Origin: an uncultured Clostridia bacterium
GTDB taxonomy: Bacteria > Bacillota > Clostridia > TANB77 > CAG-508
DNA length: 64,000 bases
NCBI GenBank assembly: GCA_928721565.1
Contig: OV788638.1
Location: forward strand, 1,484,850 to 1,548,849
Direction of reading: 5' to 3'
This document shows positions 10,539 through 22,217 of this stretch, in pieces. Every line of letters begins with the position of its first letter. Position 1 is the stretch's first letter. The position numbers and the translations under genes are program-made. Under the pieces are notes generated by a model. The model did not search any database, was not told where the DNA came from, and saw only the letters and a list, made by a program, of their open reading frames with translations.

Positions 10539-13136
10539 TTACAAACGACTTATAAATAATCCATCTTGGTTACTATCAATTTTTACTGTTGTATTAGGCA
10601 AAATTTCTTGTGATAAAATCTTTTTAGCAATTAAAGTTTCAAGCTTTTTCTGCACAAATCTCTTTAAAGGTCTTGCACCATACACTTCATCATAACCATT
10701 ATCTATTAAATAATCTTTAGCAGATTGAGTTAATTCAAGTTTAATGTGTTTGTCTTCTAGTCTTCTTTCCAAGTCTTTGATTAGAAGTTCTAGTATTTTT
10801 GATATTTCTGTCTTACGAAGTGGTTTATAAAATACTATTTCGTCTAATCTATTTAAAAATTCTGGTCTAAAGCTTCTCTTTAGTAATTCCTCTACCTCTT
10901 TCTTAGCCTCTTCTGAAATTTCTCCATTTTCTTGAATTCCTTCCAATATATATTCAGAGCCTAAGTTTGATGTTAATATTATAATTGTATTTTTAAAATC
11001 TACAGTTCTACCTTGTGAGTCTGTAATACGTCCATCATCAAGAACTTGTAGCAATACATTAAATACATCTGGATGTGCCTTTTCAATCTCATCAAATAAT
11101 ACAACTGAATATGGTCTTCTTCTAACAGCTTCTGTTAATTGTCCACCTTCATCATATCCTACATATCCTGGAGGCGCACCAATTAATCTTGAAACAGAAT
11201 ATTTTTCCATATATTCAGACATATCAATTCTTACCATATTGTGTTCATCATCAAATAATGCTTCTGCAAGTGATTTTGCAAGTTCTGTTTTACCAACACC
11301 TGTTGGACCTAAGAACATAAATGAACCTATTGGTCTACGTGGGTCTCCAATGCCTGCTCTTGATCTCATAATTGCCTCTGAAACCTTTTCAACTGCTTCA
11401 TCTTGGCCTATTACCCTTTTATGAAGAATTTTGTCTAGATTTAGAATTTTCTCTCTTTCGCCTTCCATTAATTTAGTAACAGGTATTCCAGTCCATCTTG
11501 ATATGATTTTTGCAATTTCTTCATCTGTTACTTTATTTCTTAATAGTCCATCTTCTTTACTTTTTTCTGAAATTTCTTCTTCTTTTTGTAATTCCTTTTG
11601 CAACTCTGGAAGTTTACCATATCTTAATTCTGCAACTTTATTTAAATCATAAGTTCTCTCTGCATGTTCTATTTGAGCATTCGTCTGCTCTATCTCTTCA
11701 CGTAATTTTTGAACTTTTCCAATTGCAGTTTTTTCATTTTCCCATTTTGCTTTCATTGCATCAAATTTTGTTTTTAGCTCTGCTTTTTCTTTTTGAATAT
11801 CTGCTAAACGTTGTTTTGAAATTTCATCTTTTTCTTTGCTTAATGCTGTTTCTTCTATTTCTAATTGCATAATTTTTCTAGACACTTCATCAAGTTCTGT
11901 TGGCATTGACTCCATTTCTGTTTTTATCATTGCACAAGCCTCGTCAATTAAATCTATTGCTTTATCTGGTAAGAATCTATCTGATATATATCTATGTGAT
12001 AATGTTGCTGCTGAAATTAAAGCATTATCTGATATTTTTACACCATGATATACTTCATATCTTTCTTTTAGCCCTCTTAAAATTGAAATTGTATCTTCTA
12101 CTGAAGGTTCATCTACCATTACTGGTTGGAAACGTCTTTCAAGTGCTTGGTCTTTTTCAATATACTGTCTATATTCATTTAATGTTGTTGCACCTATACA
12201 ATGTAATTCTCCTCTTGCCAACATTGGTTTTAACAAGTTTCCTGCATCCATTGCACCATCTGTTTTTCCAGCTCCTACAATTGTGTGAATTTCATCAATA
12301 AATAAAATTATTCGTCCCTCACTCTTTTTAACTTCTTGTAATACAGCTTTTAACCTCTCTTCAAACTCACCTCTATATTTAGCGCCTGCAATTAACAATC
12401 CCATATCAAGTGAAAATATACTACATTCTTTTAGCCCTTCTGGTACATCTCCTCTAACAATTCTTAAAGCTAATCCTTCTGCAATAGCAGTTTTACCAAC
12501 ACCAGGTTCGCCTATTAAACATGGATTGTTTTTTGTTTTTCTTGATAAAATTCTAATAACATTTCTAATTTCAGAATCTCTACCAATTACAGGATCTAAT
12601 TTCTGTTCTCTTGCCATTTCGGTTAAATCTTGGCCATATTTTTTAAGTACATCATACGTATCTTCTGGATTATCAGAAGTAACTCTTGTATTACCTCTAA
12701 CCTCTGACAAAGCTTTCAAAAACTCGTTTTTAGTAATACTATATCTTCGTAATAAATCTTTGATTTTACTATTTGAATTATCGAAAATTCCAATCATAAT
12801 ATGTTCAACTGAAACATATTCATCTTTCATTTTTTTAGCAATATTTTCTGCGTCAGCCAATGTCTTATTAACATCTTGTGATACATAAATACTATCACTT
12901 TGTGTTGCTCCTCCTGTAATTTGGGGCATATTGTTTACTATGTTTCTAAGTTCATCTTCTAGCCCATCTGTCATACTAATTTTTTTCAATAGTTCTTTAA
13001 TCAAGCTATTGTCTTGCTCCAATAAAGCTAATAACAAATGTTCTTGCTCTACTTGTGCATTTTGTTTTTCTGCTGCTAATGTTTGTGCACTTTGTATTGC
13101 TTCTAATGATTTTTGAGTAAATTTTTGAATATTCAT
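10539..13136 (-). CDS. clpB: ATP-dependent chaperone ClpB
   Basis: Two AAA+ modules ([15 protein letters not shown] and [15 protein letters not shown]) with a long coiled-coil middle domain. The true start is MNIQKF at 13136, with RBS AGGAGGTAGGTATT. The ORF-track start at 13226 reads through the upstream repeat element. Confidence 0.9.
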
Positions 13137-13152
13137 AATACCTACCTCCTTT

Positions 13153-13215
13153 TTGCACCGTTGGGACCGGTTCTCTTTTGTGCATTTGTTCATTTGGGAC
13201 CGGTTCTTATCGGTT
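13153..13215. repeat. tandem pair of the GGGACCGGTTC-core palindromic element (copies B1, B2) in the clpB 5' leader
   Basis: TGCACCGTTGGGACCGGTTCTCTTTTGTGCA and TTGTTCATTTGGGACCGGTTCTTATCGGTTC; core-to-core spacing 33 bp; located between the promoter and the RBS. Confidence 0.85.
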
Positions 13216-13292
13216 CTTTTTCCCATAGTTTTAGACCGAAGACTTGGTGTCCCGGCCTTTTTACTTTTATTATATCTCTTTTGACATTTATT

Positions 13293-13321
13293 ATTATATC
13301 ACTTTATTTTAGCAGTGTCAA
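13293..13321 (-). promoter_or_regulatory. sigma-A-type promoter of clpB (TTGACA-17bp-TATAAT)
   Basis: On the minus strand: TTGACActgctaaaataaagtgaTATAAT, about 150 nt upstream of the clpB start. Confidence 0.6.
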
Positions 13322-13387
13322 TAGTAGAGTGCTAATTTTATAAATATTCCCCTCCAAAAAATTATCTAAAAGGTCGTGCCTTAAAAT

Positions 13388-13428
13388 AGATATAAAAAAA
13401 TCTTAGGATTTTATAACCCTAAGATTCA
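13388..13428 (-). terminator. intrinsic terminator downstream of the 13647..14150 gene
   Basis: Stem AATCTTAGG/CCTAAGATT followed by a T7 run on the minus strand. Confidence 0.5.
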
Positions 13429-13646
13429 ATATGGTGCCTTAGCAAAGGACGTATGCGAAAAATATCTTGCACAAAAGCACTCTATTATCCGTTTCAAAAT
13501 CAGTTATAGCAATAGTTTCAAAGATATGTATACCCACAACGGTGTTTTTTGTCTATTACTATGTTTTTAATTTAACATAATTTTTTATATTTGGCAATAC
13601 CTTTTGAATAAATTCATAAATATCTTCTAAAAAATTTTTTTCTTTC

Positions 13647-14150
13647 TTAGAACCATTTTGTTTTTTCATATTGTGAAAAATAAACATCTGGCATAAACAT
13701 TACTATCCCATTATTAATATTTTCATACCCCAAAAAAATTTCATCAGTCCCTGTAATTTTAGCAATAGGATTTTGTACATGTTCTTTATCTGTGAAACTA
13801 TTATATTCAAAACAATCAATATATTTATTAAATACTTCTTTTGCACTTTTATTGATAAATTCGATATTCTCTCCTGTTGCCCTTATAGTATTAAATCTCA
13901 TAGGAGAAAATTTTTCAGTATCAATGAAATCAACTATATTCGTTATTCTTGCACTTCTTCCTGTTCCAGAAATTTCTTGTTTACCAGTATATATTGTTCT
14001 TTTATCACTATAAGGAGTTATAACTATAATAGATCTTCCAGTATTTAAATATGCTTCATATTCTAGTATAGTTTGTTCACTACTATATTTTATATTTTCT
14101 ATGTTGTTGTGATTAAAATTTGTATAAAATCCAATTGCTCCAATTTTCAT
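13647..14150 (-). CDS. hypothetical protein
   Basis: 167-aa ORF; last gene of the 4-gene minus-strand cluster next to the tRNAs. Confidence 0.4.
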   Translation of the reverse strand: MKIGAIGFYTNFNHNNIENIKYSSEQTILEYEAYLNTGRSIIVITPYSDKRTIYTGKQEISGTGRSARITNIVDFIDTEKFSPMRFNTIRATGENIEFINKSAKEVFNKYIDCFEYNSFTDKEHVQNPIAKITGTDEIFLGYENINNGIVMFMPDVYFSQYEKTKWF

Positions 14151-14240
14151 AAACTTTTTCCTTGATACTTTTTTTGATGTATTTATTACTAATATTCTAA
14201 TTTTATTACAAATTTGCCACCAGTGGCAAATTTCATAATA

Positions 14241-15317
14241 CTAATCATCATCTTCTTCAAATTCCTCATTCGGTAATTTTTTTATATATAAATTTAATTC
14301 TTCTTCCGTTGGCAATTTCTCCATTATTTCTTTTGGAATAACATTTTTTACTTTATATGAAGCTACTCCTATTGGGGCATTTACACTTTTTAAAGACCAT
14401 TCGACTGTTAGTTTATCTTTATCTTCACAAAGTAATAATCCTATCGTTTCATTATCTGTTTCTTTTTTCAAAGTTTCATCAACTGCTGTTACATAAAATC
14501 CTAATTGTCCAACATATTCAGGTCTAAATTCTGTATTTTTTAATTCTACAACTACGAAACATCTTAAATCCAAGTGATAAAATAATAAATCTATATAATA
14601 ATCATTATTATTCGTTGAAATTTTGTATTGATTTCCAACAAAACTGAAGCCCTTTCCTAATTCAAGTAATACATTCTTTATTCTTTCTAACATTGCATTT
14701 TCAATGTCTCTTTCTCTTGCTTTTTTTCCTATATTAGCTAATTCAAAAATATATGGATCTTTTATCATATCTCTGGCAAATTCACTTTGTGCAATAGATA
14801 GCTTATCATTAAAATTTGTCATTTTCTCTGGAATAGCTTGTCTTTCATATAATTCTAAATCAATTTGATGGCTTAATACAGTTTTAGACCACCCATTTTC
14901 AATAATTTGCTTAGCATACCAAACTCTTTTATCAATATCTTCGATCTTATCTACTAAAATACAATTTTGAGACCATGATATTGTTTCCAATTCTTTGGGA
15001 ATACTAGCTAAATCTTTATATGCTTCGTATACTTTTCTCATTCTTGCTAGATTACGTGCTGAAAAGCCTTGTTCATCTGGAAAATCTAATTTTAATGCAA
15101 CTGATAATCTATTAATAAAATTATTTCCGTATTTAGCATTATCACTAATTATTTTTCCCAACCTTAAATAAAAATTGACAACTTCTTTATTAGCTTTTGA
15201 AATGATGTTATATCTTGTATCTAAAATATCCTTTTCAATATCTTTTACAATTTTTACAAAGTCGTCATCTAATAGTTCAAGTTTGTTTGACATATTGTTT
15301 ATGTACCTCACTTTCAT
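14241..15317 (-). CDS. YhcG-like PD-(D/E)XK nuclease family protein (DUF1016)
   Basis: N-terminal DUF1016-like region plus a C-terminal PD-(D/E)XK-like core (DLLFYH...LRCFVVVELK). Confidence 0.6.
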   Translation of the reverse strand: MKVRYINNMSNKLELLDDDFVKIVKDIEKDILDTRYNIISKANKEVVNFYLRLGKIISDNAKYGNNFINRLSVALKLDFPDEQGFSARNLARMRKVYEAYKDLASIPKELETISWSQNCILVDKIEDIDKRVWYAKQIIENGWSKTVLSHQIDLELYERQAIPEKMTNFNDKLSIAQSEFARDMIKDPYIFELANIGKKARERDIENAMLERIKNVLLELGKGFSFVGNQYKISTNNNDYYIDLLFYHLDLRCFVVVELKNTEFRPEYVGQLGFYVTAVDETLKKETDNETIGLLLCEDKDKLTVEWSLKSVNAPIGVASYKVKNVIPKEIMEKLPTEEELNLYIKKLPNEEFEEDDD

Positions 15318-15340
15318 ATATATTCATTTTACTAATGTAT

Positions 15341-17599
15341 CTACATTTCAAGTCCATTCGCTTTTCTATGATTTTGTTTATTTTGAAATCTTATTTGTGC
15401 TTCATTAGTTTGTCTTATATGATTTTGTATTAACATTTCTTGTTCTTTAGTTAATTGTTTTCCCATTCTCTTTTCAAACATTAACCTTTTTACTTCATTA
15501 AGTCTTTTCATATCTTCCATCGCACTTTGTGTTTCAGATGTAGTTACTTTAACTTTTGAGATTGTATCTACAACACTACTCATATTAATTTTTCTGTTTG
15601 GCTCTTTTCCGTCTTTATCTTGCTCTATTTGTGATTTTTCATGCTTTGTTTTGGCTATTCCTACTTCTTGCTGTAATGCTTGTCCTCCTGTATCTTTAGA
15701 ATCAAAATCTGGTAAAAATTGCATAATAGTTTCAACTTCACTTTTTGCTATGTGCTCTCCTGTAAGTCCAAATATAAATTCATTTGATGATTTTGCTAAT
15801 CGAGTTTCCATTTTTGCTTCATCATTTTGCATTTTAAAAAAGTCATACACTATACTCATATTCCCTTGATTTATTAAAAGAGTTCTTATCATTTCTTCTG
15901 AATGCTTATATCCGTCTTTAGATAGTTCATCATATATAGCTTGTGTATCTATCATTCCATTTTCTGCCATCCCATTACCAACTAATTCTCCAAGTTCATT
16001 ATATATTCTTTCACTGGACTCATTAAACGCATAGGTTATTCCTGGTATTTCTTCACCAGACACCCATTTTGAACCAGCAGCCACAGACCAAATTGATGCA
16101 AATTTTGCCATACTAACAATTCGTGAATCTGTAATTTCTTTTCCTGTTTTTCTATCTTTAACATATAGTTGAGTCCAATCATCATCTTTATAATCAACTT
16201 GGAATTTTTGATAAATGCTTTTCAAATCTTGAAATTTGACACTTTCCCCTTTTTTTACCTCTATTGCATTTAATGGAATATTATTTCCACTTTCACATTC
16301 TTCTACTGAATTTAAAATCATATAGTCATTTTCTCTTGCTATAACTTTCATCGCAGAAAAAACTTTTTTTCTATCTAATGCTATTTGCCCTTTCGTATCA
16401 AAACTTAAATCATTATCTTGTTGTAAATTCTTACACATCTTTTTAACATTTTTTCCAAAATCATCTTTTGAAATTCCCTTTTCTTGAAAATAAATTTGTG
16501 ATAATATTTTCTCTTTTAAACTTTCATTCTCAATAATAAGACTTGGGTCATCAGAAGATCTTATAGTTTTTCCATCATCTGAAATAATAACTAATTCACT
16601 ACAATCATTTTCATTATATACATCTAATATAAATTGTTTTTCTTGTTCTGTTCGTTTTAAATCTTTGTCTATCCCTTTTTTTGCTTCTTGAAGTTCCTTA
16701 TCACTCATATTTGCATATTTTACTATTGTATTAGATAATTTTTTTAAAATATTAGGCTCGTCTTCTACTGAATCTAATACATCATATAAATATGTTTGCT
16801 GTTCTTTCTTTGATAGTGTTTTTAATTTTGGAACAATTATTTGCGTACATACTTTTTCATATAATAACTCCATCATTTTTTCTCTAATAGGTTTCATTAT
16901 GATACCATAGTATTTATCTTTATTTTCTTTTTTTAATGCATCTTTTGGATTCATATAGTATGTAGAAGTTAGATATTTATTTATATCACTATAAAATTTA
17001 TCATTTTGTGATAATCTATTACACTCTTCTTGTAAAGCATTAGAATGATTAAAATAAGAATCTAGACTCACATCTTCTCCAAATGTAGCATCTAGAATTT
17101 TCGCTATTTTTTTATAATCTTTATATTTGCTATCAGTATTTGGACTAACTGTATATCCCCAAATTTTTTCTGTAAACATTTGTGTCATACCCTCATTTAG
17201 TCCTCTATTTTTATTTGTCTGCATAATTCCAGTATGTTCTTTTTCATCTTCTGGTTTGTCTTTAAACCTTGCTCCAGAATGCAACAATTCGTGTGTTAGT
17301 TGTGTCATTATTAGTTTTTTTACACTATTGTCAATATTTATTGGATTATCATTCTCATCTAATATAGCAAAGCCTTTATCAATCATTATTTCACTAGGTC
17401 TATTAGTTTTTTCTCCTCTACTTTCCATTCTTGCTTTTCCATTTTCTACTGAATTTTCTACATACAAACCTGCTACTTTGTCCATATTTTCTCTTATAAA
17501 GTCTGCTGTCCTTAAACCTTTACTTTTTAAATAAACTTGAATTTTATCTTTTAGTTGGTCTAGAACATTTTTGTCCATTTCTTTTCTATAATTTTCCAT
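15341..17599 (-). CDS. large hypothetical protein with an HExxH (zincin-like) motif
   Basis: 752 aa, K/E-rich. The only motif I recognise is MTQLTHELLHSG. No signal peptide. Confidence 0.4.
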   Translation of the reverse strand: MENYRKEMDKNVLDQLKDKIQVYLKSKGLRTADFIRENMDKVAGLYVENSVENGKARMESRGEKTNRPSEIMIDKGFAILDENDNPINIDNSVKKLIMTQLTHELLHSGARFKDKPEDEKEHTGIMQTNKNRGLNEGMTQMFTEKIWGYTVSPNTDSKYKDYKKIAKILDATFGEDVSLDSYFNHSNALQEECNRLSQNDKFYSDINKYLTSTYYMNPKDALKKENKDKYYGIIMKPIREKMMELLYEKVCTQIIVPKLKTLSKKEQQTYLYDVLDSVEDEPNILKKLSNTIVKYANMSDKELQEAKKGIDKDLKRTEQEKQFILDVYNENDCSELVIISDDGKTIRSSDDPSLIIENESLKEKILSQIYFQEKGISKDDFGKNVKKMCKNLQQDNDLSFDTKGQIALDRKKVFSAMKVIARENDYMILNSVEECESGNNIPLNAIEVKKGESVKFQDLKSIYQKFQVDYKDDDWTQLYVKDRKTGKEITDSRIVSMAKFASIWSVAAGSKWVSGEEIPGITYAFNESSERIYNELGELVGNGMAENGMIDTQAIYDELSKDGYKHSEEMIRTLLINQGNMSIVYDFFKMQNDEAKMETRLAKSSNEFIFGLTGEHIAKSEVETIMQFLPDFDSKDTGGQALQQEVGIAKTKHEKSQIEQDKDGKEPNRKINMSSVVDTISKVKVTTSETQSAMEDMKRLNEVKRLMFEKRMGKQLTKEQEMLIQNHIRQTNEAQIRFQNKQNHRKANGLEM

Positions 17600-17610
17600 A
17601 TACTATACCT

Positions 17611-18153
17611 CTATTTTCTTTTAAAAAATACTGTAATTTTTTCTAAAATTCTTTTAAATAAATTTTTCTGTTTGTATTCAACCAGTGATACATTTTCTTT
17701 ATTCTTGTTGTCTATATCTTCTATATGGTCATATTTCTTATTTTTGAATAAATTGTCTGGATTATATCTTTCCTCAAGTTCTTTCTTTTCTTTTTCATTT
17801 TCAGCTAATTCATTTAGAAAATTTTGTTTTTCTTCCTCACTATTGCACCAATAATTAAGATTTAAAATTGCCAATAATACCATTGTTTCTCTTTTCAAAT
17901 TTTGTTCAATCAATGGCTTATCAATATCAATTTTAGGCTGGTAATCATTCATTTTTTCTTCTTTAAAAAATTGCCTTATTTTTTCTGGTACTTTTTCTTT
18001 ATATTCATCTTCTAATAAGCTTAATATCTCATCCATTTCTGCATAAGCTAACATATCATCTATTACCATTTGTTTTCCTCCAATATCAACATTCGCTTTA
18101 TACTTCTCTATATATTTTATACCATTAATTAATGTTTTTTTCAATAAAAACAT
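17611..18153 (-). CDS. hypothetical protein
   Basis: 180-aa ORF, 11 bp upstream of the HExxH protein gene; first gene of the cluster. Confidence 0.4.
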   Translation of the reverse strand: MFLLKKTLINGIKYIEKYKANVDIGGKQMVIDDMLAYAEMDEILSLLEDEYKEKVPEKIRQFFKEEKMNDYQPKIDIDKPLIEQNLKRETMVLLAILNLNYWCNSEEEKQNFLNELAENEKEKKELEERYNPDNLFKNKKYDHIEDIDNKNKENVSLVEYKQKNLFKRILEKITVFFKRK

Positions 18154-18363
18154 TTTATTTTCTATTAATACTTTTTACTATGCTCTTCTTTATTTCTTCC
18201 TTAACTGTAACTAATACTTACACTACTATCTTCAATAAATTTAAAGAAAATGCATTAGAAAATTATATCAATTATATTAAAAATATCTAGTTGCATTAAA
18301 ATTGCATTATAAAAACCGTAGAATTGTTGATGTTTCAACGTTTCTACGGTTTTTAATATGGTG

Positions 18364-18445
18364 GACAGGGAAGGATTCGAACCTTCGTACTCGTATGAGA
18401 ACAGATTTACAGTCTGCCGCCTTTAGCCACTCGGCCACCTGTCCA
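18364..18445 (-). tRNA. tRNA-Tyr (anticodon GTA)
   Basis: The reverse complement GGACAGGTGGCCGAGTGGCTAAAGGCGGCAGACTGTAAATCTG...GGTTCGAATCCTTCCCTGTCCACC has a long variable arm and a T-loop GGTTCGAATCC. Confidence 0.85.
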
Positions 18446-18475
18446 AATTTTTTATTACTTAAGTAATAAAAAAAT

Positions 18476-18552
18476 GGTGCTCCCACTAGGACTTGAACCT
18501 AGGACCTACCGGTTATGAGCCGGTTGCTCTAACCAACTGAGCTATAGGAGCA
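18476..18552 (-). tRNA. tRNA with CAT anticodon (elongator Met, or Ile2 after lysidine modification)
   Basis: The reverse complement GCTCCTATAGCTCAGTTGGTTAGAGCAACCGGCTCATAACCGGTAGGTCCTAGGTTCAAGTCCTAGTGGGAGCACCA shows a cloverleaf, an encoded CCA end and a 1-72 G-C pair, so it is not an initiator tRNA. Confidence 0.8.
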
Positions 18553-18731
18553 TGTTAATATTTTTTTATTGCTCAACGCAGTTCTTAGTATACATTATTT
18601 ACTTTCAATTGTCAATACTTTTTTCGAAATTTTTTTACATTTTTTCATTTACTTAAATCTAATTAAACTTCCACTAATATATAGAGCCAAAAATTAATGG
18701 TAAAGAAAATCAATACCATTAATTTTTTTAA

Positions 18732-18908
18732 GATCATACTGTAACATCATATAAATCATCTATTATAAAATTAGTATCTTCTGTATAAAAAAGGTCTTTT
18801 ATACCATGTGAAAATTGTACAATTCCTTTTATTTCATTAGTAGGAATTATATATGCTATTTCAATCCTTAATCCATCACTACTTGATTTTATATAATCCT
18901 TTTTTATC
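18732..18908 (-). pseudogene. N-terminal remnant (58 aa) of an alpha/beta-hydrolase gene
   Basis: RBS GAGGT followed by MIKKDYIKSSSDGLRIEIAYIIPTNEIKGIVQFSHGIKDLFYTED... (an HG-motif lipase/esterase N-terminus) that ends prematurely. It lies between the oleate hydratase gene and the tRNAs. Confidence 0.35.
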
Positions 18909-18937
18909 ATTTTTACCTCACATTTTACGCTCTTTTA

Positions 18938-20734
18938 TTAAATTACATTATGCTCTTTTAAGATTTTCTCAATATCTGTACCTGCGATTTTTTTGATGAC
19001 TTCTTTTAAAGCAATTTTTTCTTTTAAGCCTAGATTCATATCTGTAATCTTTTTTCCATCTCGTAGTTGAACTGTGGCATTTAATAAATCTCGAATATCA
19101 TATACACTACCCCAAACTTCTGGTACACCACGGTCTATGTCTAATAATGTATATACAGCTTCCATTGCAGTACGAATTGAATACTCTGTTGTAAATATTG
19201 TATCTCTTTTTGTTTCAGCAAATTGACCTAAAAATGCAAAGTTTTTGCTTCCTTCTGGAACTACCAATGGCCTATCTCCTGCTGCCCTTGGCATAAAGAA
19301 TGCTGTAATATATGGCATCATGCAAGGAATTGTATTCGCACTATTCTCTGCCATTTCTTCAATTTGATCTTCTGGCACTCCTAAGTGATATAGCCATTCC
19401 ATACAGATTTCTTTACCTGTACAATCTCTCATAGCTTTTTTCACATAATTTCCTGGTTTATCACTAAATAGCCCATAAATCCATCCTACAAGTTGACCTT
19501 TTGGTTGGCTTCTAAATTGAGGTTGTCTATTAAATGTCCAACTTAATAACCAATTTGAATCTTTAACAGTAACAATTCCTCCTGTTACAACTTTTCCAGT
19601 AAACGGATCTCTTTTGCAAATTTTTTGAACATATGGTGGAATACGATCATCTAATGTTGTTACTGTTGCACTCATCCAATTACTTTTTTCTGGATCATGA
19701 CAGAATTTATCTGGATTTCCAAAAGCTGAATCTTGTGCAGCAATTTTACGCCACATGTCCCATCCTCCACCTGGTTTAATTTCGGTATTAAATGGTGCAG
19801 GTTCATTTTGGCTACCTAAAGAAGAATTTTCAACACAACCACCATTTGTTATAAATACTAAATCGTCTTCTAATAAATCAATATGATCTTCTATGCCATC
19901 ACGAAGAACAACAATTCTTTTGGCTAATTTTTTGTCTTCTTTAATGTCAAACTCAACATTTTCGACTTTTACTCCATAATGGAATTGTACTCCAAAGCTT
20001 TCAAGGTATTTTACCATAGGAAGTATCATTGATTCATATTGATTATACTTTGTAAATCTTAGTGCTGTAAAGTCAGGTAATCCTCCAACATGATGTATAT
20101 AACGTTTTATATATAATTTCATTTCTAATGCACTATGCCAATTTTCAAATGCAAACATTGTACGCCAGTATAGCCAGAAATTTGAATTTAAAACTTCATC
20201 ATCAAAATAGTCTGTAATTTTTTTATCATATAATTCCTCATCTGGTGTAAAAAATAATTTCATTATTTCCATTGCACCTTTATCTGATAATTCAAATTTT
20301 TTATCTGTATGGGCATCTTCTCCTCTATTTATTGTTGCTCTCATTAATGAATAATTTGGGTCTTCTTTATTTAACCAATAGTATTCATCTAATACGCTTA
20401 CACCTTCTGTCTCGATTGATGGTATAGAGCGAAATAAATCCCACATACACTCAAAATGGTTATCCATTTCTCTGCCGCCACGCATTACATATCCTAATCC
20501 ATCATATAAATATCCATCACATGCTCCACCAGGAATTTGTTCTTTTTCTAATATGTGAACTCTTTCTCCTTTCAATTGTCCATCACGAACTAAAAAACAT
20601 GCAGCAGCTAATGCTCCTAATCCTGAACCTATAATATATGCAGATTTTTTATCAACACCTTCTGGCTTTTTTGGTCTAGCAAAAGCCTCATAATTTCCAC
20701 TACTATAATACATAACAATTTCCTCCTTCATCAT
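18938..20734 (-). CDS. ohyA: oleate hydratase (MCRA family, FAD-dependent)
   Basis: MYYSSGNYEAFARPKKPEGVDKKSAYIIGSGLGALAAACFL matches the conserved oleate hydratase N-terminus with a GxGxxG FAD motif. ~590 aa. The likely true start is MYYSSG at ~20713. Confidence 0.85.
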   Translation of the reverse strand: MMKEEIVMYYSSGNYEAFARPKKPEGVDKKSAYIIGSGLGALAAACFLVRDGQLKGERVHILEKEQIPGGACDGYLYDGLGYVMRGGREMDNHFECMWDLFRSIPSIETEGVSVLDEYYWLNKEDPNYSLMRATINRGEDAHTDKKFELSDKGAMEIMKLFFTPDEELYDKKITDYFDDEVLNSNFWLYWRTMFAFENWHSALEMKLYIKRYIHHVGGLPDFTALRFTKYNQYESMILPMVKYLESFGVQFHYGVKVENVEFDIKEDKKLAKRIVVLRDGIEDHIDLLEDDLVFITNGGCVENSSLGSQNEPAPFNTEIKPGGGWDMWRKIAAQDSAFGNPDKFCHDPEKSNWMSATVTTLDDRIPPYVQKICKRDPFTGKVVTGGIVTVKDSNWLLSWTFNRQPQFRSQPKGQLVGWIYGLFSDKPGNYVKKAMRDCTGKEICMEWLYHLGVPEDQIEEMAENSANTIPCMMPYITAFFMPRAAGDRPLVVPEGSKNFAFLGQFAETKRDTIFTTEYSIRTAMEAVYTLLDIDRGVPEVWGSVYDIRDLLNATVQLRDGKKITDMNLGLKEKIALKEVIKKIAGTDIEKILKEHNVI

Positions 20735-20902
20735 TTAGTATGACATATTATAAAAATAATATTTTAAAATTTACAATAAACAAAGAAAAATATATGTATG
20801 TTTTTTTTACATTTTATACATTTTGTCTAATATTTTAAATTTATCACGAATTCTTATTTTTGTCATATTATGTAATATACAATCAAGAAAAGGAGGATTA
20901 AT

Positions 20903-21268
20903 ATGTTTACGCGTAGATACCAAAAATGCCGTTGCATGAATAATAATGCATGTTGTAATACTGCTAATAACATGATTGAAGACAAATGTAATGATGTTTG
21001 CCCTTGTAATTATGAAATGAATGTTGCAGACGAATGTGAATGCGGATTTGACGAAGAATATGAAATGAGTGTTTTTCCAGGAAATCCAATGTTAGCTCAA
21101 AGTTATGTTCCTTGGCAATACATGGATAAAACTTTTAAACCTTGTGTAGGCTTAAAAATGGGAACAATCTTTCCAGAATTGGTAAGTCCTTATATGCCTT
21201 GCCAATCTATGAGAGTTAATGAATTCTTAGAAGCAACAAATACTATTGGAGAGGGGTGTAATAAATAA
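20903..21268 (+). CDS. cotJA: spore coat-associated protein CotJA-like
   Basis: RBS AAAGGAGGATTAAT. Cys-rich small protein with a PMLAQSYVPWQ motif, upstream of cotJB and cotJC. Confidence 0.6.
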   Translation: MFTRRYQKCRCMNNNACCNTANNMIEDKCNDVCPCNYEMNVADECECGFDEEYEMSVFPGNPMLAQSYVPWQYMDKTFKPCVGLKMGTIFPELVSPYMPCQSMRVNEFLEATNTIGEGCNK

Positions 21269-21594
21269 TGATAAATGATACAAATAGAAATTGCAATTGT
21301 ATGTGCAATATGAATTCTATGAACATGTCTTCTAATGCTGACTGCAGACCAACTAGAGAAGAAATGTTGCAAAATATCAAATGTTTAAATTTTGCTATAA
21401 TTGAATTAGGTCTTTATTTAGACACTCATCCTGATGATGAAAGAGCTCTTTGCTTACACAGAAAATATTGCAAAGAGTATCGAGAATTAACTGACAAATA
21501 TCAAAAAGTTTATGGGCCTTTAACAATCCAGTTCCCTTGCAATAAATGGAGATGGCTTGAAGAACCATGGCCTTGGGAAGGAGGAATTGTTTAA
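21268..21594 (+). CDS. cotJB: spore coat protein CotJB
   Basis: LNFAIIELGLYLDTHPDDERAL...YGPLT is the CotJB signature. Its start overlaps the cotJA stop. Confidence 0.75.
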   Translation: MINDTNRNCNCMCNMNSMNMSSNADCRPTREEMLQNIKCLNFAIIELGLYLDTHPDDERALCLHRKYCKEYRELTDKYQKVYGPLTIQFPCNKWRWLEEPWPWEGGIV

Positions 21595-22217
21595 TGTGGA
21601 CTTATAATAAAGTTTTAGAATATCCAATTAATATTAAATGCACAGACCCTCGTCTTGCAAAAGTTGTTATTAGTCAATACGGCGGACCTGATGGAGAGCT
21701 TGCCGCTTCTCTTAGATATTTATCTCAAAGATTTGGAATGCCTGATCAAAAAGCTAAAGCTATCTTAAATGATATAGGTACAGAAGAATTAGCCCATCTA
21801 GAAATGGTTGGTACTATTGTCCACCAATTAACTAAAAACGCCTCAATAGAAGAAATTGAAGCAGCTGGTTTAAGTGCATATTATACAGATCATGGGGTAG
21901 ATATATATCCACAATCAGCAGCAGGAGTACCTTTCTCTGCTAATTGCTTAGCATGCAAAGGTGATGCAATAGCTAATTTACAAGAGGATTTAGCAGCAGA
22001 ACAAAAAGCACGTGCAACCTATGAAAAATTAATAGATTTATGTAGAGATAATCCAGATGTCGTAGATCCTCTTCGCTTCTTACGTGAAAGAGAAGTTGTT
22101 CACTTCCAAAGATTTGGTGAAGCTTTAAGAGGTGTTCAGGATAAACTTGCTGAAAAGAAATTTTATATGAATGATGGAAGTTGTTTAGATATGCAACAAA
22201 GTAATTGTGATTGCTAA
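21594..22217 (+). CDS. cotJC: spore coat protein CotJC (manganese catalase family)
   Basis: MWTYNKVLEYPINIK...LRYLSQRFGMPD...EELAHLEMV shows the Mn-catalase/CotJC ferritin-like fold. Its start overlaps the cotJB stop. Confidence 0.8.
   Translation: MWTYNKVLEYPINIKCTDPRLAKVVISQYGGPDGELAASLRYLSQRFGMPDQKAKAILNDIGTEELAHLEMVGTIVHQLTKNASIEEIEAAGLSAYYTDHGVDIYPQSAAGVPFSANCLACKGDAIANLQEDLAAEQKARATYEKLIDLCRDNPDVVDPLRFLREREVVHFQRFGEALRGVQDKLAEKKFYMNDGSCLDMQQSNCDC

Follow-up and report, generated by a model that had tools for sequence, protein, structure and literature searches.

Integrative mobilizable elements (IMEs) that use a serine recombinase are bounded by only very short flanking repeats, 2 bp in Tn4451, and it is common to find decayed derivatives from which the integration and transfer genes are gone (PMC5704250). 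The zincin metallopeptidases, found among the proteins of mobile elements, present a small β-sheet, an HExxH helix and then a glutamate-bearing helix, with two histidines and a downstream glutamate (PMC5512222). We analyzed a stretch of 64,000 nucleotides from an uncultured Clostridia bacterium (GCA_928721565.1, contig OV788638.1, positions 1,484,850 to 1,548,849; hereafter the window), in which an island of four minus-strand genes lying beside tRNA-Tyr and tRNA-Met touches on both of these systems. The island encodes a 152-residue protein, a large protein of 752 residues, a YhcG/DUF1016 nuclease, and a 167-residue protein. The explanation that we favor overall, with moderate confidence, combines a cargo remnant of an IME with a protease-based conflict or addiction pair formed by the first two genes.

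The functional core of the island appears to be the tightly linked pair of the 152-residue protein and the large protein, whose genes are 11 nt apart and whose other neighbors vary. Neighboring genes were tallied by tblastn over all fetched loci together with the annotated contexts, yielding approximately ten distinct arrangements of the zincin-headed protein; in every arrangement sampled except two, the 152-residue gene immediately precedes the large one. In the window (L001), the pair is followed by YhcG; in L009–L012, genes for 152 and 753 residues and YhcG stand behind a relaxase. The element of L002–L004, which splits a Zip gene, encodes proteins of 157, 152, 780, 650, and 40 residues and a serine recombinase. 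L005–L008 present tRNA-Leu, a tyrosine integrase, a divergent HTH_3 gene (helix-turn-helix, HTH), a 67-residue gene, the 152-residue gene, and a large protein divided into 281 and 452 residues, with a convergent Mob_Pre relaxase. The most widespread form, L106–L114, has integrase and RepA_N fragments and KAP-NTPase and Schlafen/AlbA_2 neighbors. L119 is a minimal element of 152-, 754-, and 47-residue genes and a 537-residue serine recombinase, L013–L014 hold the pair by itself among core genes, and L115 and L116 again place the small gene directly upstream of the large one. The two exceptions are L104, where the large gene has no small partner, and L016, where it stands behind a 66-residue partial homolog. 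YhcG adjoins the large gene only in the lineage of the window and L009–L012; elsewhere its position holds the 650-residue unknown, the convergent Mob_Pre gene, a recombinase, or unrelated genes. The first-pass annotation had coupled YhcG to the zincin-like protein within a four-gene system and had treated the small gene as an unrelated unknown, a view that this distribution does not support: YhcG is a neighbor in one lineage, and the small protein is the conserved partner.

The small gene had also been over-extended, to 180 residues: all 23 of the 23 aligned homologs begin at an internal ATG at 18069, preceded by a GGAGG ribosome-binding site (RBS), which gives 152 residues. Its family comprises more than 810 homolog clusters at 90% identity, none of them annotated, with single sequences found on up to 160 contigs, and, compared across lineages, its conservation exceeds that of the large protein. 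The 152-residue protein is helical and ends in a conserved amphipathic basic helix whose hydrophobic moment, 0.59, is the highest in the protein. Searches of the PDB and of profile libraries returned no relative of it, and its family profile drew only spurious hedgehog and NrtA matches. Kinship with the small partners of 157 residues in L002 and 215 residues in L101 was considered and rejected, as these proteins are unrelated on comparison. Persistence of the module where mobility genes have been lost or never existed is seen in the window, L013, L016, L101, and L104, and defence-type genes are frequent neighbors (AbiTii, KAP NTPase, Schlafen/AlbA_2, AAA_15, and Fic).

The large protein belongs to an undescribed family. 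A word-indexed search returned 74 homologous clusters, none annotated, and an exhaustive profile search extended the family to 341 clusters at 50% identity. The AlphaFold2 model of the full-length protein has a mean predicted local distance difference test (pLDDT) value of 82 and a predicted template-modeling score (pTM) of 0.77, rising to 88.7 and 0.88 for the head alone. In the head model, strands 42–48, 58–61, 69–74, 78–80, and 86–89 precede the active-site helix: the predicted layout is a β-sheet, a helix at 91–110 that carries HELLH, a helix at 129–147 that carries NEG, and a helical domain to about residue 330. The C-terminal module is modeled as α/β plus helical to about residue 630, followed by a disordered linker and a basic helical tail. 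HELLH is the sole HExxH motif in the protein, as the first-pass annotation had stated. Across 72 members, each 18–36% identical to the window protein, the columns that hardly vary are H103, E104, H107, G124, N135, E136, G137, T139, Q140, Y159, and P257, which essentially constitute an HExxH...NEGxTQ site, and we infer from the model that E136 is the third metal ligand. The abundance of lysine and glutamate, previously put forward as a hallmark of the protein, does not set it apart, because ClpB of the same AT-rich genome (25–35% GC) is alike in composition (20.5% K+E versus 21.4% in the large protein).

By motif and predicted topology the large protein is zincin-like; it is not a demonstrated member of the zincins, since no profile or fold match links it to any of them. 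Neither the window protein nor the 72 members matched a Pfam zincin family, and a scan of the 72 members against Pfam, PADLOC, and PHROGs detected no recurring family. A sequence search of the PDB with the large protein found no relatives, and the family profile retrieved only spurious matches to DNA polymerase beta and CpxP at E>0.2. Foldseek comparison with the PDB and BFVD yielded no match below E 0.1 and placed SprT-like proteins only at E 1.5–5, which leaves room for a distant zincin fold. A reading of the protein as a P-loop enzyme or primase was rejected, as it has no Walker A motif.

The family is modular. In a diverse and abundant lineage, the gene is split at about residue 285 into a 281-residue head and a C-terminal module of 425 or 452 residues. 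The two genes share 44 nt in the +1 frame (L005 9199–11359; L106 7469–9548), an arrangement kept across divergent sequences that may reflect a programmed frameshift or a stable division into two genes. The C-terminal module (profile positions ~440–600) is also found in proteins of about 700 residues with a transglutaminase-like head (Transglut_core in 5 of 5 tested) and behind a second HExxH head, VVMHEFEHG. Two full-length relatives carry an additional HopA1-like domain. In the one transglutaminase-headed relative examined, an overlapping small gene stands in front and is unrelated to the 152-residue protein.

The mobile ancestry of the block emerges from comparison with L009, a gut-metagenome relative. 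The large protein of L009–L012 is 86% identical to that of the window. L009 has the order tRNA-Met, tRNA-Tyr, serine recombinase, 177-residue gene, TnpV, MobC/NikA, 49-residue gene, MobA/VirD2-type relaxase (PF03432), 152-residue gene, 753-residue gene, YhcG, and 253-residue gene, beyond which lie an RNA-like unit and, further on, hrcA-grpE-dnaK-dnaJ. Window positions 18089..14210 align with L009 9514..13393 at 89.6% nucleotide identity, and both flanks are common to the two loci, namely the tRNA pair on one side and a 184-nt non-coding stretch on the other. The window is without the ~4.8-kb segment of L009 that runs from the recombinase to the relaxase. No recombinase or relaxase lies within ~10 kb of the island in the window, where the origin of transfer (oriT) was not searched for, and the identified genes around the island are of housekeeping type (mutL, two Ham1, clpB, and secA). 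The three shared genes are under purifying selection: between the window and L009, the ratio of non-synonymous to synonymous substitution rates (dN/dS) is 0.23 for the small gene, 0.23 for the large gene, and 0.06 for YhcG, at dS values of 0.30–0.55.

We ascribe a mobile origin to the block because the tail of L009 matches it at the nucleotide level and because the pair rides several unrelated backbones: a recombinase-only element in the Zip gene, a tyrosine integrase at tRNA-Leu with Mob_Pre, an HTH_3/67-residue block with RepA_N, and the minimal pair with a serine recombinase. The island is thus probably the immobilized cargo arm of an IME, lodged between tRNA-Tyr and an RNA-like locus. The window copy itself falls outside the definition of an IME, having neither a recombinase of its own nor a relaxase, and its status as a cis-mobilizable element (CIME) cannot be shown. 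The insertion at a tRNA locus proposed by the first-pass annotation survives as an acquired, variable island, judging from the L009 match, the several backbones, and a strain-specific 167-residue gene; the four genes are not core in all relatives, and the sequence comparisons indicate that the block was acquired horizontally. The direct repeat of the tRNA end that the first-pass annotation had proposed to look for near 13.3–13.6 kb is not there: no repeat of the tRNA-Tyr 3' end or of the junction occurs anywhere in the window (up to 3 mismatches, 7-nt seeds). Missing att-type repeats would be expected if the parent element used a serine recombinase, for which the repeats are only about 2 bp long, and their absence is therefore uninformative.

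YhcG is an ordinary full-length member of its family, and its original identification holds. Both of its Pfam domains lie far above threshold (DUF1016_N, E=1.6e-34, and YhcG_C, E=2.4e-60, at 203 and 119 bits versus cut-offs of ~33), it matches PADLOC PDC-S02 over its full length (E=3.6e-122), and the catalytic D...ELK motif is intact (IDLLFYH...VVVELK, at residue 250 of 350). Gene callers and the L009 ortholog, 94.6% identical in amino acids, place its start at 15293, which widens the gap to the large gene to 47 nt. We regard YhcG as a separate single-gene nuclease, the PADLOC defence candidate PDC-S02, that appears to have joined the operon in one lineage only. The 167-residue gene is, from its distribution, essentially strain-specific filler: the protein has only 8 weak or partial homologs among 5.8 billion clusters, exact copies occur only on contigs of its own strain, and it is unrelated to the 253-residue protein that fills the equivalent position in L009. 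Directly behind YhcG lies the palindrome AAATTTGCCA-CTGG-TGGCAAATTT, of the form TTGCCAC-YRG-TGGCAA, copies of which (13373–13390 and 14402–14418) flank the 253-residue gene in L009. The slot between this hairpin and the RNA-like unit, occupied by 167 residues in one genome and 253 in the other, looks like a site of cassette-style turnover.

The RNA-like unit at the distal edge of the island is a candidate small RNA gene in both genomes. The unit, to which the stretch AAACTATTGCTATAACT belongs, comprises a promoter-like site and a candidate transcript of ~150–170 nt that is 74–79% identical to its L009 counterpart. Folding gave z-scores of -2.9 (window) and -4.5 (L009), all overlapping open reading frames (ORFs) are of 42 residues or fewer, and a search of Rfam gave no match at E<=1. 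The L009 counterpart (14417–14650) closes with a different hairpin and T-run. The terminator at 13427–13398, the only terminator-like site in 13000–19200, had been assigned to the island as its own; it closes this separate promoter-bearing unit and also ends any read-through from the island. No terminator intervenes between the 152-residue, large, and YhcG genes.

In the mechanism that we propose for the pair, the head would be a zinc metallopeptidase in which H103, H107, and E136 bind the metal and E104 is the catalytic base. The C-terminal module would supply recognition of a target or trigger, conferring specificity or sensing, and the 152-residue partner, with its amphipathic helix, may act as a cofactor, anchor, or restraint. 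The pair would then benefit or stabilize whichever element or chromosome carries it. That the head is an active metallopeptidase we infer from the modeled site. A protease-based conflict or addiction module is the role toward which we lean, at somewhat less than even confidence, because the pair is the main cargo of minimal recombinase-only elements, survives without mobility genes, swaps heads, and has defence-type neighbors; such a module would in turn account for survival after the mobility genes are lost. Held a little more loosely still is the broader possibility that the pair represents a protease-based system for immunity or counter-immunity, widespread in gut Clostridia and hitherto undescribed. 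It would rest on a C-terminal module and head without a Foldseek match in the PDB, would have interchangeable heads (two HExxH types and a transglutaminase-like one, with HopA1-like add-ons), and would be spread by several small integrative-element families, the window holding a domesticated copy.

Several observations weigh against the combination of IME remnant and conflict pair. L009 has nothing that corresponds to the 269 nt separating tRNA-Tyr from the module, and alignment indicates that the window did not arise from L009 by simple deletion. The serine recombinase of L009 (5364–6492) has a frameshift directly behind the catalytic YIRVSTDDQ motif and is ~180 residues shorter than those of L119 and L002, so that the L009 element is probably immobile too, like the window copy. 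No empty site was recovered, either with the hydratase as anchor (80 loci, no synteny) or by exact look-up of the ClpB protein (no record), and a single old insertion with differential decay is therefore inseparable from two insertions at one hotspot; the window shares no housekeeping genes with L009 that would give a baseline of host divergence. In some loci the pair comes right after an HTH_3/Cro-like switch or a relaxase, which would equally fit a life-cycle or anti-defence role. Lastly, the large-protein family is absent from 72,556 plasmids and 50,697 phages searched by tblastn and from the IMG/VR scan, so that less can be inferred from better-studied elements; a scan of JGI metagenomes gave only 4 loci.

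Of the other roles, an anti-defence or establishment factor in the style of ArdC and the polyvalent proteins, its head cleaving the defence proteins of the recipient or itself and made early or transferred with the DNA, is unlikely in our estimation, although it has the most to recommend it. The pair is carried by IMEs beside relaxases and can be the first to follow an HTH_3/Cro-like switch, the linker of the large protein is disordered and its C-terminal tail basic, and the extra HopA1-like domain of some relatives creates multi-head architectures. A zincin metallopeptidase is, moreover, the commonest domain of the polyvalent proteins of conjugative elements, in clades unrelated to classical zincins (PMC5512222). 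Yet neither ArdC-N nor any other polyvalent-protein domain was detected, the intact pair occurs in contexts without transfer genes and on minimal recombinase-only elements, and the family is missing from the plasmid, phage, and IMG/VR collections. Purifying selection on the immobilized window copy points the same way, with the proviso that the divergence may predate immobilization. We give less credence to a regulator of the element's own life cycle, comparable to the anti-repressor protease ImmA of ICEBs1, in which the C-terminal module would sense a signal and the head would cleave an HTH_3 repressor or host factor to release excision or transfer. The layout of the most widespread lineage, with a divergent HTH_3 gene followed by the 67-residue, 152-residue, head, and C-module genes, invites this comparison, as it is that of the immR-immA (ICEBs1) and cI-cro switches. 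However, none of the 72 members matches a Peptidase_M78/ImmA profile, no HTH_3 neighbor is present in the window, L009, L002, L119, or L013, and the gene persists where nothing remains to be regulated. Both alternatives agree with a position behind a relaxase or an HTH_3/Cro-like switch, and less well with persistence in immobile contexts.

Two further alternatives concern the island as a whole. A single tRNA-linked defence island, in which YhcG would work with the giant zincin-like protein, could be argued from the co-orientation and tight spacing of the genes, from the uninterrupted run of the small, large, and YhcG genes, from the PDC-S02 match, and from the joint inheritance of the three-gene block, at similar dS, since the window and L009 separated. 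It is nevertheless improbable, as the adjacency of YhcG is confined to one closely related lineage, PDC-S02 is a single-gene candidate, and the 167-residue gene gives way to an unrelated gene in L009. Very improbable is a block with no mobile origin at all, inherited vertically in two related Clostridia and resembling cargo by chance. The same flanks in both genomes (tRNA-Met/Tyr and the RNA-like unit), a neutral-looking RNA-like region whose 74–79% identity is compatible with the dS of the module, and the lack of att repeats would agree with it. On the other side, the pair occupies at least 5 other backbones at other sites, including the split Zip gene and the tRNA-Leu site with its integrase, and in L009 the very same interval contains a recombinase, TnpV, MobC, and a relaxase. 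The leader of the window copy, furthermore, resembles the L005/L106 lineage and not L009, which implies a mosaic ancestry.

Table 1. Features of the island and its surroundings (window coordinates; all positions refer to the whole stretch).
Feature	Position	Strand	Remarks
152-aa partner gene	17611..18069	-	listed ORF 17611-18153; internal ATG at 18069 with GGAGG RBS; 11 nt upstream of large gene
Large 752-aa protein gene	15341..17599	-	listed ORF identical; undescribed family; multidomain
Head and helical domain	16745-17599	-	aa 1-285
Predicted metal site	17192..17293	-	H103-E104-L-L-H107, nt 17279-17293; E136 of N135-E136-G137, nt 17192-17194
C-terminal module	15701-16744	-	aa ~286-633; disordered linker and basic helical tail at aa 634-752
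YhcG/DUF1016 PD-(D/E)XK nuclease, 350 aa	14241..15293	-	listed ORF 14241-15317; Pfam and PADLOC
Palindromic hairpin	14210..14236		directly 3' of YhcG; homology with L009 breaks off exactly here
167-aa orphan gene	13647..14150	-	listed ORF identical; variable single-gene slot; no family match
Candidate small RNA unit	13432..13615	-	conserved non-coding; 74% identity to L009 14417-14601
Promoter-like site of RNA-like unit	13597..13569	-	TTGCCA-17-TAAATT with upstream TG
Intrinsic-terminator hairpin	13398..13427	-	13-bp stem and T-run; upstream of clpB promoter
Module 5' leader	18070..18146	-	homologous to DNA preceding the small gene in other elements (L005-L008 and L106-L114, 72-74% identity); element-derived DNA ends here on the proximal side
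tRNA-Tyr	18359-18444	-	terminator hairpin ~18305-18360; L009 ortholog identical at 79/86
tRNA-Met	18475-18551	-	L009 ortholog identical at 67/77
Hydrolase_4 alpha/beta-hydrolase pseudogene remnant, 58-aa ORF	18734..18910	-	alignment to 301-aa L023 protein
MCRA-family oleate hydratase	18938..20734	-	Pfam MCRA, E=5e-223

The four ORFs, the two tRNAs, and the 58-residue ORF are present where the first-pass annotation had put them (Table 1), with gaps of 11, 23, and 90 nt between the island genes as the ORFs are listed. The 152-, 752-, and 167-residue proteins have no match in Pfam, NCBIfam, PADLOC, or PHROGs. The 58-residue ORF, previously read as the remnant of an α/β-hydrolase, is genuinely that: it aligns with a 301-residue Hydrolase_4 protein of L023 at E=7e-23 with an internal gap of 38 residues, covering residues 1–37 and ~76–95 before it is truncated, and the loss of the GxSxG region leaves a pseudogene remnant in place of a functional family member. 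A full-length copy of the hydrolase lies 1.5–3 kb upstream of the hydratase in L022 and L023. The oleate hydratase (region 18938–20836, minus strand) is 80–96% identical in amino acids in Clostridia of many families (Oscillospiraceae, Lachnospiraceae, Clostridium, and others), but in 80 loci the nucleotide homology does not go beyond the gene and no flank is syntenic. It looks like a horizontally mobile single gene, in which case the variable region reaches ~20.8 kb.

At the other end, clpB likely starts at the ATG at 13136 (minus strand), giving 865 residues, and not at 13226. Upstream of it, a CIRCE-like element, TTAGCAGTG-N9-GAGTGCTAA (13311–13337), overlaps a perfect TTGACA-17-TATAAT promoter, which suggests control of clpB by HrcA, and the clpB leader holds two direct copies of GAACCGGTCCCAA (13160–13215). 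Three ORFs of 121, 108, and 216 residues at 20903–22217 (plus strand) look like a cotJA-cotJB-cotJC spore-coat operon; if this identity is correct, the host is a spore-former.

The island by itself is ordinary, as decayed mobilizable elements beside tRNA genes are common. The pair that it exposes is unannotated and unmatched in every library searched, and its models match no PDB fold by Foldseek. Hundreds of sequence clusters of this two-gene module come from gut Clostridia of humans and animals, and it combines head swapping with a metalloprotease-type site that is sharply conserved. New functions in defence, anti-defence, or addiction have prime candidates in modules of this kind; such functions shape gene flow in the gut microbiome, including the spread of resistance. 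The analysis also corrects a false lead, the supposed system of YhcG and a zincin, and brings to light, at the edge of the island, a cassette slot for one gene and a candidate small RNA.

Compared with described elements, L009 resembles the Tn4451/Tn4453-type serine-recombinase IMEs and CIMEs in its serine recombinase, TnpV, and Mob module, and also in its lack of long flanking repeats, its specific chromosomal site, the decay of its integration and transfer genes, and the retention of its cargo. It differs from Tn4451 in the relaxase, which is MobA/VirD2-like (PF03432) with MobC/NikA instead of the Mob/Pre protein TnpZ, and in carrying the 152/752/YhcG block instead of catP. The window copy departs further from these IMEs, having no recombinase, relaxase, or demonstrable att sites. 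As for the pair, two-gene protease-effector defence and toxin–antitoxin (TA) modules offer several parallels: a small upstream gene that is 8–11 nt away or overlapping, swappable heads on a conserved module, a patchy spread over mobile elements and chromosomes, and defence-gene neighbors. The differences are that the 72 members show no homology to any of 5,027 PADLOC models and that, of the two proteins, the small one is the more conserved across lineages, as an antitoxin or immunity protein seldom would be. Assignment to ImmA/IrrE (Peptidase_M78) is contradicted by the lack of any M78 match and by an HTH_3 neighbor that is restricted to the L005/L106 lineage.

The polyvalent proteins and ArdC (PMC5512222) are approached from another direction. 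Like them, the large protein is multidomain and borne on mobile elements, and its model places an HExxH helix and a glutamate-bearing helix after a small sheet; like their metallopeptidase clades, it is not specifically related to the classical zincin families and has relatives with variable extra heads. It lacks the ArdC-N, methylase, SNF2, ParB, and LPD domains of polyvalent proteins, which combine two or more conflict-related domains, and with its zincin-like head as the one recognizable domain it stands outside that class, and neither sequence nor Foldseek links it to any of their metallopeptidases. It differs as well in its obligatory small partner gene and in its occurrence at sites without transfer genes. 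In concept, the pair is best placed with the zincin-bearing multidomain proteins of mobile elements.

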